Below, in pieces: positions 36,290 to 47,507 of a stretch of DNA of 60,875 nucleotides. This DNA comes from Candidatus Hadarchaeota archaeon (GTDB lineage: Archaea; Hadarchaeota; Hadarchaeia; Hadarchaeales; JAWBSP01). Made by a program: the position numbers and the translations under genes. The notes beneath the pieces are model-generated. The model ran no database searches. It was not told the DNA's origin and saw only the letters and a program-made list of their open reading frames with translations. The stretch is from contig CAYYWO010000005.1 in the NCBI GenBank assembly GCA_964474885.1, positions 1-60,875 of the forward strand, read 5' to 3'. The stretch's first letter is position 1; every line of letters starts with the position of its first letter.

Positions 36290-36313
36290 TGTCTGTTACT
36301 ATGGTAACAGACA
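36290..36313. repeat. 24-bp palindrome, copy 1
   Basis: TGTCTGTTACTATGGTAACAGACA (one mismatch). Confidence 0.95.
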
Positions 36314-37408
36314 AAACTGAGCACAAGCTCCAAGGGACGAGGCAGATCCTGATCCTAACAGGCTGAGGAGAGTGTGAAAACTACCCTCATGTACCAGCTG
36401 ATCGAGGATCTGCTGGACTCGGGGGTAGACCCTAGACACATCCTTTACTTCAGCTTCGATGCTAGGATCCAGGATCCTTTGGACATCCTGAGCGAGTACT
36501 AGAGGATAACGGGAACGGGCTGGAAGAACGAGCAAATCTTCGTGTTCTTCGACGAGATCCATGAGCTCAGGGAGTGGAGTTCGAAGGTGAAGCTCCTCTA
36601 CGACAACCTCTCCAACGCCAGGTTCGTGCTCTCGGGTTCGGCCAGCGCGATGCTCGAGCGCGAGACGGCCTCAGACCTTGCGGGCAGGTGCTTCCTGAGG
36701 GAGGTCGAACCCCTCTCGCTCAGGGAGTTCGCGGAACTCTCTGGGGCAGGGAGGTGGAGGATGGTCGAGCTCCCTCTTACATCAGACGCCCCTTCCCAGA
36801 AATCGTGGCTGGGATAACAAGAGGACGTACGAGTACATCAGGAAACTCGTGGTCGAGAAGGCTTTCAAGGCCGACCTGCCCGAGATCTTCGGCGGGGTGA
36901 ACACATCCCTGCTCTCGACCCTCTTGGAAAACTTCATGGAAGAACCCGGGGGACTCCTGAACTTTTCTTCCCTCTCCAAGGACCTGAGAGTCCACAGGCT
37001 ACGCTGGAGAGACATCTTCTATCTGGAGTTCATCAAGCTCATCAGGGTCGTGAGGAACTAGGCCCTCTGTAGGGCCGAGTCCAGAAGGATGAAGAAGATT
37101 TACCCCTACCACATAGCCCTGGCCTTCCCCTTCGGCTGAGCATTGATGAAGGAAGGGTGCTCGAGGCCCTCGTCGCCTCCTCTCTCCAGCTCAGGAACTA
37201 CTGGAGGGAAGGTAGCAAGGAGGCGGATTTCGTGCTGAGGAATGGAGAACTCGTGCCCCTCGAGGTCAAAGCTGGGGAGAAGGTGAGGAAGGAGGACTTA
37301 AAGGGCTTGCTCCACTTCATGGAGAAGTACTGGTTAGAAGGGCATCCTTGTTTATGGAGGGAGCGAGAGGAAAAGGTTGAAGCTCGACGCAGAAGAGATC
37401 GAGCTTAG
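36301..37408 (+). pseudogene. Degraded AAA+ ATPase (AAA_14/DUF4143 type)
   Basis: Frameshifted LILTG-LRRV*KTTLMYQ Walker A, FFDEIHE Walker B, LSGSAS, LAGR, PLSLREF, EADFV..PLEVK; multiple stops and frameshifts. Confidence 0.85.
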
Positions 37409-37554
37409 TGGATCTGCTCTTCTAGCAAACTGTTTGTTTGTTCAACTTGACAGATGAATAGTTCGTCTTGGCCAAAACATGTTCGCAATTAAATGCTTTA
37501 AGCTACCCGCTTAGCTGGAGATTCAACAATCAAGATCGAGCAATGCGCCCAAAG

Positions 37555-39972
37555 CTAAATCTGAAGAACCATCCTCATTAACTCGGTTGCGGAGGGCCCA
37601 TGGAACTCAGCCGCGGTGACCATGAGGACGAGTACGCCGACTGTAAATAATAAGAGATCGCAAGATACCCTCATCCCTACAGCTCTTGCCGTGCTAACGC
37701 CCAACCCCCTCGTTTCGATTATCGTCAGTACTGCAGACCAAACCCATGTCACCATCAAAGATGAAATGAGCAGGCGCAGGAGATGGGCCTCAATTACCAG
37801 CGATCCTATGAATGTAGCAGGTAAAAACAGCACGAACGAAGCTGTGCTCCAACCTATCACTTCTAAACAGGCGAAAAGTCCCAATCCCCCTTTGAAAATT
37901 TTACAGAAGAGATAGTAAAGGGCAGAATAGAACACGAGACCGAGCAAGCCCACACATGCAATAAGCAAAGGATTTCTCAACACCCCCATTATCATGAGCG
38001 GCAGCACATCCCAGCCTGGGATCGAAGTCGGGAAAGCCACGGGAAACTCATATAGGATCCAGCCTGCGAGTTTGTAGATGAAAATCGAAACGAAGGAAAT
38101 CATGAGAAGTGCAAAAACCAACGTTCTGGGCACCCCATGCCTAGGCTTCTTGGAGAAAGAGAAGGGCTGAAAAACTATCCGGAATGAATCTACTTCAAGC
38201 CCCTCTTTTCCTTTTTTGGCTCTGAATGCCCCAAACCCTAAGAGCCCGGCGAACGCGACCAAGAGGTAAACCGGTAGCATATCGATCGGGTATACGATCC
38301 TCGCTTCCTCAATCGCAGATTTTAGATCTTGAACATTCTCGCACACTAAATAAACGACCGCATCCGAAACTGGCAGATGCCACTCTCCGTTCACCACTTG
38401 TGGTTCGAGCTCCTTCCCCATCAACCCAAAGATCTTCAAATCAGCTGGCATGCGGGGAACGATAAGTTCCGCCTCAGGAAAAGTGGTCCAGATGGTAACA
38501 CAGCCCCCATTTTCCCCCTCAAACCAATAGCCGTAAACCCTAGAGCTCAGATGAAGTTTTCCTCTGTACTCCAAATTGTCAAGCATCCGGATCAGCGTGG
38601 CATAAGCAACATAGGAGGGCTTGGGAGTAAGATCGTAGAAGAATAACCCTTGGTTATGCTCGAAGTTTTTGGGATCACGTCCGCCGTCTTTAAAGGTGAA
38701 CCAAAAAATCTTATCCAATCCGGCCGCAGCACCGAGGATGAACGTCCGCGGGAGGAATTTCGCTCGCAGTTCCATAGGTGTCCCACTCCAGTTTTGCGGG
38801 ATAGAGAAATCCGTCAAGTTGGTGGGCCAGCCTGTCTCGGTCAACCAAATGTCCTTTTGCTTCGCTTGGTTCTTTTTAGCGTACTCCCTCATTACCTCTT
38901 TGGCACGCCTCACCATCCAAGGGAAATAGAACTCAGGATACATTCCGGGTTGGTAGTGATGAATGCTAGCGACATCCATGTACGGAAATCCACCTTGCTC
39001 GAAGACTTGACGCATGTGTATGAAATCGGTACCGCCCAAGCCCACGATTATACAATCTGGGTCAGCCCTCTTCGCCTCCGTGTAGGCGACCTTTAACAAA
39101 TCCACGTAGTCCTGAACTGTTCCGCCCCTGAAGAAAAGTCCATCGGGGAAAGGCTCGTTCCAAATTTCCCAAGCTGCTACGTTTTCCTTATAGCGCTTGA
39201 CCGTTTCGTACACATACCTTCCCCATTCATCGAGGCATTCCGGTTTGGGCGGGAAGGCATCCCATCCTGCGTGCACACCAACTCCGATCGGCTTGAAGTC
39301 GGGAGGGACATCTGCGGCCCATTCAGGGACAGGGTACCCCAGAATGCCGAGCAACAAAACGTCTTCTTTGTTCGCGTCTTTTACCAACCTATCGGTCGAT
39401 TTCCAATTGAAGATACCTGGTTCCTTCTCGACGCTTTTCCAGCAAATACCAACCCTTGCCCACCTGATCCCAGCCCTTCTCATCAATTCGGGACTTCGGA
39501 GTGAGCAAACTCCAAAAAAGGAATCAAACCGCGTCTCTAACTCGGCCAGATCAGAGGGGATTACTCCAATTCCAACCCTTCTGCACCCAATCTTCTCTCC
39601 ATTTACCTCGAGCGCCACATTCGCCCAATAAAATCCCTCATCGAGTGTGCAAGTGACTTTCAGCAAAGGCTTCTTCTCACCGAAGATGAAAGAAAAGGCA
39701 TTTTCTCCTACGCGATTCCCAAAGAAATCCACGAGCTCGCACCTCAGGGTACCCTTCTTTCCACTTAACCTTGAAGCTTCGTTTTCAGGCACGGAAACGA
39801 TTATCTCCACCCTTTCTCCAGGAGCAAACAAGTTGTGCTCATCGTTGGTCTCAACTTTGATCTCAATCCGATCTGATTCTTCCGCTGACTTTGAATAAGG
39901 TATAAGTCCACCAGCGACCACCAGGAGTATCGCTAATAATGACAAAGAAAAAGCTCGTTTTTGCAACTTCAT
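37555..39972 (-). CDS. Secreted clan GH-A glycoside hydrolase (GH39/GH5-like) with C-terminal membrane (Yip1-like) domain
   Basis: Signal peptide, WEIWNEP acid/base, WLTETGW nucleophile, KIFWF, PKPSYVAY; about 240-aa multi-TM tail. Confidence 0.8.
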   Translation of the reverse strand: MKLQKRAFSLSLLAILLVVAGGLIPYSKSAEESDRIEIKVETNDEHNLFAPGERVEIIVSVPENEASRLSGKKGTLRCELVDFFGNRVGENAFSFIFGEKKPLLKVTCTLDEGFYWANVALEVNGEKIGCRRVGIGVIPSDLAELETRFDSFFGVCSLRSPELMRRAGIRWARVGICWKSVEKEPGIFNWKSTDRLVKDANKEDVLLLGILGYPVPEWAADVPPDFKPIGVGVHAGWDAFPPKPECLDEWGRYVYETVKRYKENVAAWEIWNEPFPDGLFFRGGTVQDYVDLLKVAYTEAKRADPDCIIVGLGGTDFIHMRQVFEQGGFPYMDVASIHHYQPGMYPEFYFPWMVRRAKEVMREYAKKNQAKQKDIWLTETGWPTNLTDFSIPQNWSGTPMELRAKFLPRTFILGAAAGLDKIFWFTFKDGGRDPKNFEHNQGLFFYDLTPKPSYVAYATLIRMLDNLEYRGKLHLSSRVYGYWFEGENGGCVTIWTTFPEAELIVPRMPADLKIFGLMGKELEPQVVNGEWHLPVSDAVVYLVCENVQDLKSAIEEARIVYPIDMLPVYLLVAFAGLLGFGAFRAKKGKEGLEVDSFRIVFQPFSFSKKPRHGVPRTLVFALLMISFVSIFIYKLAGWILYEFPVAFPTSIPGWDVLPLMIMGVLRNPLLIACVGLLGLVFYSALYYLFCKIFKGGLGLFACLEVIGWSTASFVLFLPATFIGSLVIEAHLLRLLISSLMVTWVWSAVLTIIETRGLGVSTARAVGMRVSCDLLLFTVGVLVLMVTAAEFHGPSATELMRMVLQI

Positions 39973-47062: not shown

Positions 47063-47447
47063 GAGCCTCTTCGCCCTTCAGGAGCTCTTCCACTGGCTTC
47101 TGCCCCCTCCTGACGATTTTGGTGTTCACCTGTACTATCGCCTCAGAAATCGTGTTCCCTCTGACTTTCTTCCTGCGCCTCTCCCCTCTCCGCTTAGGTC
47201 TGAAACCGGGACCGCTTGCCAGCAGGACATCATGCCTCCCGGGACCAGAGATGTCAGGCCTCATCGGAAAACCATCCTTATCCGTTCCGCCCGTCACCTG
47301 TAGCTCATAACCCGGCAGGCCCACTACTCCACCATCAAATGTGTCCCCTATTTTGAGGCCTACTAGCCTGCGCGCCTGCGGATCCTTAACTTCAACCTTG
47401 TAGGTCTTGCCCGTCTCTGGATCGGATATGTTCACCTTGAACACCAT
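47052..47447 (-). CDS. rps6e: 30S ribosomal protein eS6
   Basis: KVNISDP, TGGTDKDGFPM, GERRRKKVRG. Confidence 0.97.
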   Translation of the reverse strand: MVFKVNISDPETGKTYKVEVKDPQARRLVGLKIGDTFDGGVVGLPGYELQVTGGTDKDGFPMRPDISGPGRHDVLLASGPGFRPKRRGERRRKKVRGNTISEAIVQVNTKIVRRGQKPVEELLKGEEAHAG

Positions 47448-47483
47448 TCAGTATCAACTCAAACAAAATTTTATCCGAAGATT

Positions 47484-47507
47484 TGTCTGTTACCATAGTA
47501 ACAGACA
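47484..47507. repeat. 24-bp palindrome, copy 3
   Basis: TGTCTGTTACCATAGTAACAGACA, the exact reverse complement of copy 1. Confidence 0.95.

Follow-up and report, generated by a model that had tools for sequence, protein, structure and literature searches.

Why does a short and almost invariant palindrome recur three times in one archaeal contig, each time between genes and twice beside a gene for an AAA+ ATPase? We addressed this question in a stretch of 60,875 bp from Candidatus Hadarchaeota archaeon (assembly GCA_964474885.1, contig CAYYWO010000005.1), which is the whole metagenomic contig and is called the window here. A search with TGTCTGTTACCATGGTAACAGACA, allowing up to 3 mismatches, identified exactly three sites for the 24-bp palindrome TGTCTGTTAC-YATR-GTAACAGACA, at positions 36290, 43459 and 47484, and none of 100 dinucleotide-preserving shuffles of the window contained any match at this threshold. 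This bears out the three palindromes, the second of them perfect, that were reported in a preliminary description of this DNA. Our answer, which is tentative, is that the palindromes are copies of a young, lineage-specific and non-autonomous hairpin repeat that resembles repetitive extragenic palindromic (REP) elements or miniature inverted-repeat transposable elements (MITEs), and that this repeat would be mobilised in trans without target duplication and would mark the seams of rearrangements.

Copy 1 (36290..36313) reads TGTCTGTTAC-TATG-GTAACAGACA with one mismatch and extends to a 26-bp palindrome at 36289-36314, copy 2 (43459..43482) is perfect with CATG at its centre, and copy 3 (47484..47507) has the centre CATA, again with one mismatch. 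Reverse-complement comparison confirmed that copies 1 and 3 are inverted versions of each other without any difference over 26 bp, shared mismatch included, as had been stated in the preliminary description. The unit begins with TG and ends with CA, and the copies are spaced by 7,169 and 4,025 nt from start to start. All arm positions (60 of 60) are identical over the three copies, the differences being confined to the central CYATRG, i.e. the central 4-6 bp. Ranking the whole window by mismatches to the 24-mer gave 0, 1 and 1, followed by values of at least 9; the window thus holds no decayed copy, the next-best match having 9 mismatches, and no lone 10-nt arm was detected anywhere in the 60,875 bases. 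Apart from these three copies, no palindrome of the window has arms exceeding 8 nt.

The DNA on either side of the copies is unrelated. Twelve Smith-Waterman comparisons of the 80-nt flanks, covering all orientations, gave a best shuffle p of 0.013, and a likeness of the left flank of copy 2 to that of copy 3, which had been noticed by eye, turned out not to be significant (p = 0.17). As the flanks show no similarity beyond chance, the repeated unit is the bare 24-26 bp. Folded in 44-nt windows the palindrome forms a 10-11-bp stem with a 4-nt loop at -13.8 to -22 kcal/mol (z = -2.3 to -5.7), and no Rfam family matches at any of the copies. The inner 14 bp, GTTACCATGGTAAC (36296-36309, 43465-43478 and 47490-47503), resemble the eukaryotic RFX X-box consensus, but the proteins of the window contain no RFX domain and the resemblance is probably a coincidence.

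Copy 2 is located between two convergent genes with native ends. On its left lies an intact archaeal gene (42319..43455, plus strand) for an AAA+ protein of the ATPase_2 family, identified by Pfam, PDB entries 2fna and 2qen, and Atlas clusters. The protein has an MCM-type winged helix at its C-terminus and matches 2fna at 5e-58 over residues 1-371 of 378. To the right of copy 2 the core block hisF-hisH-kae1-aIF2gamma-rps6e (43483..47447, minus strand; Pfam) extends between copies 2 and 3, and the final residues of HisF align to the ends of solved HisF proteins, indicating that this C-terminus is native. Copy 2 begins 3 nt past the ATPase stop (43455) and adjoins the hisF stop (43483), so that it takes up 24 of the 27 bp between the convergent stops. 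The preliminary description had made the same claim, and it stands; both proteins align with solved homologues up to their C-terminal ends. In the gene list of the contig, 7 of the 10 convergent pairs have stop-to-stop gaps of -57 to +3 nt, the remaining gaps being 27 (ATPase/hisF), 111 and 420 nt. Since 27 is the sum of 3 and 24, copy 2 looks as though 24 bp had been added cleanly to a tight 3-nt junction of the ordinary kind. The bases flanking it, TGAGAG and TCAGAG, match at 5 of 6 positions, but as they are composed of two stop codons plus GAG we did not count them as a target duplication. At the other end of the ATPase gene, positions 42286-42319 contain a tandem 17-nt duplication (AACTAGGGGGGGTTAGT / AACTAAGGGGGGTTAGT, 16 of 17 identical), which extends to the initial T of the TTG start codon and may be a duplicated ribosome-binding region.

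At copy 1 the palindrome coincides with the end of a truncated gene. Its left neighbour is an hdrD-like Fe-S/CCG-domain gene (35116..36255, minus strand; Pfam CCG and Fer4), the first gene of a minus-strand block, whose ATG at 36255 lies immediately before the Fe-S domain and 34 nt from the palindrome. With this ATG taken as the start all three copies are intergenic between native gene ends, in line with the preliminary description. To the right follows the pseudogene of an ATPase with AAA_14 and DUF4143 domains (36301..37408, plus strand), recognised by Pfam on its fragments, by PADLOC, which places it in the candidate system PDC-S01, by its homologues P0001 and P0002 and by a tblastn map. 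The pseudogene carries at least 3 frameshifts and 1 in-frame stop and has lost about 29 codons at its 5' end. Intact homologues are 62% (P0001) and 56% (P0002) identical over a 104-amino acid fragment, and the N-terminus is conserved among them (..N-E/P-W-W..EKAKPYKR..). In the tblastn search residues 55-399 of P0001 mapped to 36377-37378 and residues 30-49, weakly, to 36304-36363, and no counterpart of residues 1-29 was detected at the locus. On the evidence of this alignment the AAA_14 gene is cut off exactly at the right edge of copy 1. The ATG at 36301 within copy 1 was described as supplying a start to the dead ATPase, and it is indeed in frame with the first pseudogene fragment (MVTDK..QILILTG); as the homologues have about 29 more N-terminal residues, it is an accidental ATG and not the native start.

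We also considered whether the AAA_14 gene had been split by an inversion, as the peptide NSWIRIF encoded beside copy 3 on the minus strand looked like NEWWIRE of the missing N-terminus. Single-sequence tblastn with the AAA_14 N-terminus did not single out this peptide among the chance matches. We then combined 18 homologues into a profile of residues 1-29, leaving out P0139, which has no N-terminus. This profile gave no match by copy 3 either, and its best hit among 2,369 six-frame pieces was located elsewhere with E = 0.22. The split was thus rejected.

Copy 3 is located 36 nt upstream of the rps6e ATG (47447), with the TATA-like sequence GATAAAATTTT in between. On its other side 548 bp without coding signal (47508..48055, negative coding scores) extend to the aIF5B stop. 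The preliminary description had placed copy 3 between rps6e and a PrsW pseudogene; the rps6e side is correct, but neither PrsW nor any other Pfam family matches in 47508-48055 at E values up to 10, and the pseudogene was not confirmed.

The palindromes had been described as pristine next to decayed genes, suggesting a site maintained by selection. The first statement goes too far, as copies 1 and 3 each have one of their 24 bp substituted, and the second lacks support, as this amounts to a change of about 4% in two of three copies, with copies 1 and 3 probably sharing one ancestral change. The mirrored change of these two copies is most simply explained by one mutation followed by copying in opposite orientation, since two independent mirrored events would occur in about 1 of 72 cases by our own arithmetic. 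With only 1-2 events in 72 bp, selection and youth are indistinguishable. Avoidance of a restriction site does not account for the central substitutions, as CCATGG is not avoided in the window (21 observed, 22.8 expected).

We then asked how far the palindrome extends beyond this contig, as the preliminary description had proposed by suggesting a scan of genomes for the motif. The window carries archaeal genes (rps6e, aIF2-gamma, aIF5B, Kae1, an archaeal-type riboflavin synthase and an intron-bearing tRNA). The closest relatives of its aIF2-gamma in the protein collection (P0004-P0006) are 76-77% identical and the nearest named ones, from Hadarchaeales, about 65%; judged by such comparisons the lineage of the contig is poorly sampled. 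Scanning 185,579 species genomes, among which there is no close relative, with GTCTGTTACNNNNGTAACAGAC (18 specified bases) yielded 8 matches, all bacterial, against 8.7 expected by chance, and no related copy. The CATG centre and the outer T/A bases are both missing from all 8, most of which resemble terminator hairpins with A-runs and T-runs. Plasmid and phage collections gave partial matches at chance level only (E about 4-5). A literature search with the 10-mer arms returned only unrelated primer matches and no printed description of the palindrome, and a search for DUF4143/AAA_14 returned nothing useful. As far as can be seen from these sequences the palindrome is restricted to its lineage, and with no close relative in the scanned set this says little about its age.

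The near-identity of the copies, their unrelated flanks, the lack of intermediates, the clean insertion at copy 2 and the deletion junction at copy 1 argue for a copied DNA element and not for a selected set of binding sites. The same contig provides a contrast. TTAGG-N4-5-CCTAA palindromes at 20296-20310, 25782-25795 and 25797-25810 are located in promoter regions by genes for DtxR/MntR-like regulators (19868-20290, minus strand; 26081-26530, plus strand) and FeoA/FeoB, and they are probably operators of metal regulators. This motif has 4 matches in the window against 0.28 expected, the fourth (7751) being at the 3' end of a gene, and its sites vary among themselves in spacer and flanks, as genuine operators do. 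Single-strand transposition of the HUH/Y1 type, as known from IS200/IS605 and from REPs with their REP-associated tyrosine transposases (RAYTs), depends on hairpins and leaves no target duplication. Insertion without target duplication together with a hairpin is thus what leads us to prefer a REP- or MITE-like repeat. Of the explanations offered in the preliminary description, the one of REP-like elements or scars at seams is partly supported, by the unrelated flanks, the truncation junction and the clean addition, whereas those of maintained operators and of parS sites are unsupported.

Under this preferred explanation an enzyme encoded elsewhere in the genome would place copies of the 24-bp unit in intergenic DNA with no target duplication, the likeliest candidate being a single-strand (HUH/Y1-type) transposase or a comparable recombinase that recognises hairpins. 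Resident copies would then serve as short homologous or dyad-symmetric seams at which deletions and rearrangements end. The neighbouring ATPase genes would be island-type cargo that has come to lie at such seams by chance and would not be partners of the palindrome, which might have a secondary role as an RNA 3' hairpin. The DNA around the copies is accessory or decaying, comprising the PDC-S01-type pseudogene, a fragment of an AbiEi-like gene, the 548 non-coding bp and a low-GC block.

By analogy, the palindrome would work most like bacterial REP elements, although we do not claim membership of the REP family. REPs insert without target duplication, are known as join points of rearrangements and are often found between convergent genes. 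They are described in PMC2817692 as short extragenic units of about 20-40 nt that form stem-loops and have many unrelated flanks, and the palindrome is likewise a short, stem-loop-forming unit in extragenic position. The same paper gives a copy number usually above 100 per genome, to be set against three copies on our 60,875-bp contig. REPs are moreover imperfect palindromes, in contrast to the perfect palindrome here, and they are accompanied by a RAYT (Y1) transposase, whose gene REPs typically flank and for which the scanned open reading frames (ORFs) of the window gave no match. According to a 2025 survey, REP-like hairpins are widespread in archaea under a loose definition of the hairpin (PMC12306157).

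The likeness to MITEs, or to abutting terminal inverted repeats of DDE transposons, is of a different kind. Divided at its centre, the palindrome yields two 12-bp terminal inverted repeats with TG...CA ends, trivially so since 2 x 12 bp make up the whole unit, and like MITEs it is dispersed, intergenic and non-autonomous. In contrast to MITEs it has no internal sequence and no consistent target-site duplication, there being none at copies 1 and 3 and only the 5/6 repeat of stop codons at copy 2.

Several observations weigh against a mobile repeat. Pfam and/or NCBIfam scans of our own selected list of ORFs from the 60.9-kb window detected no transposase, RAYT-like gene, recombinase, ParB or SegB. 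Only three copies were seen, all on this one contig and within 11.2 kb (clustering p of about 0.09 for three random points in 60.9 kb, by our own calculation). With 24 bp the unit is far shorter than MITEs, and it lacks the 5' tetranucleotide of classical REPs: strict REPs carry a conserved GTAG or GTGG, whereas our unit starts with TGTC, and the neighbouring bases vary from copy to copy. Two copies are located 34 and 36 nt upstream of gene starts and just upstream of TATA-like boxes, which would also fit a regulatory site, and variation is found only in the central 4-6 bp, as in the spacer of a site for protein binding or recombination. Finally, no empty site was seen, and the mobility of the repeat is what we infer.

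According to the alternative that survives best, a dimeric DNA-binding protein recognises the palindrome in double-stranded form, the candidates being the adjacent ATPase with its winged helix and a nucleoid or segregation factor. The palindrome would then act as an upstream promoter element, as a roadblock or insulator, or as a centromere-like site. A dyad of 10-4-10 with variation limited to the spacer suits a dimer, and copies 1 and 3 precede the start codons of two minus-strand operons by 34 and 36 nt and the TATA-like boxes by 8-9 nt, in a contig many of whose genes seem to be leaderless. Both genes of the AAA_14/ATPase_2 type in the window touch a copy (chance below 0.01 by our rough estimate), and the intact one encodes a C-terminal winged helix. 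However, copy 2 is located between two stop codons with no promoter within reach, and the genes downstream of the other two copies, redox genes (hdrD-like) on one side and ribosomal, translation and histidine genes on the other, share no theme. The claim that the palindrome is an operator of an ATPase-winged-helix family lacks support, as the upstream region of the intact ATPase contains no copy. The other associated ATPase gene is dead and has lost its 5' end precisely where the palindrome lies. Sites of a real regulon are degenerate, whereas the palindromes are identical at 23-24 of 24 positions with nothing intermediate, and with two copies proximal to promoters and the third between stops, mismatches of 0, 1, 1 and at least 9 do not describe an operator set.

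The centromere-like version of this idea meets its own difficulties. Like parS, matS and SlmA sites the palindromes are near-identical, short and present in several copies in one chromosomal region, but those sites are conserved across species, are often located inside genes and have known binding proteins, whereas the palindrome is strictly intergenic. The parS suggestion of the preliminary description finds no partner either, as neither ParB nor SegB is among the scanned ORFs of the window, in which the MinD/ParA-like matches have ferredoxin inserts or are of the MrpORP type, and none of the 185,579 species genomes, which do not include close relatives, holds a copy. Altogether, we regard a protein-binding site as possible but rather unlikely.

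The arrangement of two arms around a short centre would similarly suit the core site of a tyrosine (XerA-like) recombinase, with the palindromes bounding gene modules that can be shuffled, as an archaeal counterpart to the pdif/dif modules known from Acinetobacter. In such a scheme arms of 9-11 bp would bind a homodimer, the central 4-6 bp would be the crossover region whose asymmetry sets the orientation, and the segment at 36.3-47.5 kb would be inverted whenever copies 1 and 3 recombined. The palindrome fits a 9-6-9 division, and also one of 11-6-11 in which 9-10 of 11 arm positions match. Core sites of this kind are defined in PMC8371274 by two inverted arms around a centre of 6-8 bp, and archaeal dif is 11-6-11 with nearly perfect arms (PMC8371274 and PMC2958812). 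The copies differ only in the central CYATRG, and as the centre of copy 1 is the reverse complement of that of copy 3, these two are identical sites in inverse orientation. The copies are flush with the ends of gene blocks, one of them at a truncated gene, and modules bounded by inversely oriented Xer sites are documented for bacteria.

Several features nevertheless make recombinase sites unlikely. The scans of the window found no recombinase and no Xer gene, and no exchanged modules were seen. The 3 + 24 nt at copy 2 indicate that the unit was added to a pre-existing ATPase/hisF junction, and the fully symmetric centre of this copy would give no direction. An inversion that split the AAA_14 gene is unsupported, as its N-terminus was not detected by the other copies with the 18-homologue profile. 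The essential genes rps6e, aIF2gamma and kae1 are located between copies 2 and 3, so that efficient excision would be lethal. The core of dif differs from the GTTA...TAAC next to the centre of the palindrome. Moreover, dif proper is a single 28-bp site per archaeal chromosome according to PMC8371274, located at the terminus, as opposed to three copies in 11.2 kb. It is quite unlikely that a homodimeric recombinase, XerA-like or new, shuffles or inverts modules here with copies 1 and 3 as an active inversion pair around 11.2 kb that contain essential translation genes and a decaying defence islet.

A role of the palindrome as RNA, i.e. as a stable 3'-end hairpin of the hisF operon and the ATPase gene that terminates mRNAs or protects their ends, as REP hairpins do in bacteria, is improbable as the main explanation. 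The stem-loop is stable, copy 2 follows immediately after two stop codons, and on the minus strand the T-rich tracts TTTGTTTTT and TTTTGTTT occur within about 20 nt after copies 2 and 3. Copies 1 and 3, on the other hand, are 1.2 kb and 548 nt away from the nearest upstream stop on the same strand and are located before promoters, no compensatory changes indicate selection on pairing, and archaeal termination is not known to need hairpins.

Least credible of all is an artefact of assembly or library preparation, with metagenomic joins at a short repeat or linker: the window is an entire metagenomic contig, the flanks are unrelated with one junction truncating a gene, and the species genomes, plasmids and phages searched hold no copy, but all copies are in non-coding DNA with intact genes and promoters sensibly placed around them, copy 2 is positioned precisely between two native stops unlike a random chimeric join, and the copies are not known to match any adapter and differ by point changes, unlike a synthetic linker. 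Among other known repeats, spacings of 7,169 and 4,025 nt do not fit a CRISPR repeat, and inspection by eye showed no fit to a C/D-box sRNA or to an integron attC site (GTTRRRY core).

The segment between copies 1 and 2 comprises the dead ATPase gene, a gene for an 805-amino acid membrane protein, an intron-bearing tRNA gene, pncA, pncB, an AbiEi-like fragment and the intact ATPase gene. The membrane protein gene (37555..39972, minus strand; weak GH10 and Yip1 matches) belongs to the low-GC block at 37001-40000, which has a GC content of 0.49-0.50 as compared to 0.55-0.62 around it and a codon-usage score of 0.115 as compared to about 0.27, and which may have been acquired horizontally. The AbiEi-like antitoxin gene fragment (41992..42249, minus strand; PADLOC AbiEi E = 1.5e-5, about 45 of 263 profile positions) is located in the 436-bp gap between pncB and the ATPase gene and is another decayed gene of defence type. 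The tRNA gene (40016-40125, minus strand, 110 nt) scores 54 bits with Rfam, was missed by ARAGORN and presumably contains an intron. Because it overlaps a long ORF call at 39961-40707, the start of pncA is more likely the ATG at 40184. Integration linked to this tRNA gene was rejected, as no direct repeat of 40016-40125 is present elsewhere in the window. Farther away, a 189-amino acid ORF (49848-50417, minus strand) matches ribosomal protein L24e with residues 4-45 and nucleoside-diphosphate kinase with residues 55-187, and is either a fusion or two genes in frame without a stop between them.

The palindrome represents a sequence family that is new, although its general kind is known, and it comes from an archaeal lineage that has been poorly sampled. 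For annotation it carries the warning that an ATG inside such a repeat should not be taken as a gene start, and for metagenomic assemblies and comparisons of gene order these repeats are places that need care. If the palindromes do bound modules as recombinase sites, they would reveal modular chromosome shuffling in archaea, which would be the more interesting outcome. If they are a mobile hairpin repeat, as we tentatively favour, they would add a scarcely sampled archaeal lineage to the carriers of REP-like elements and would point to a single-strand transposase or recombinase in this genome that acts on them in trans.

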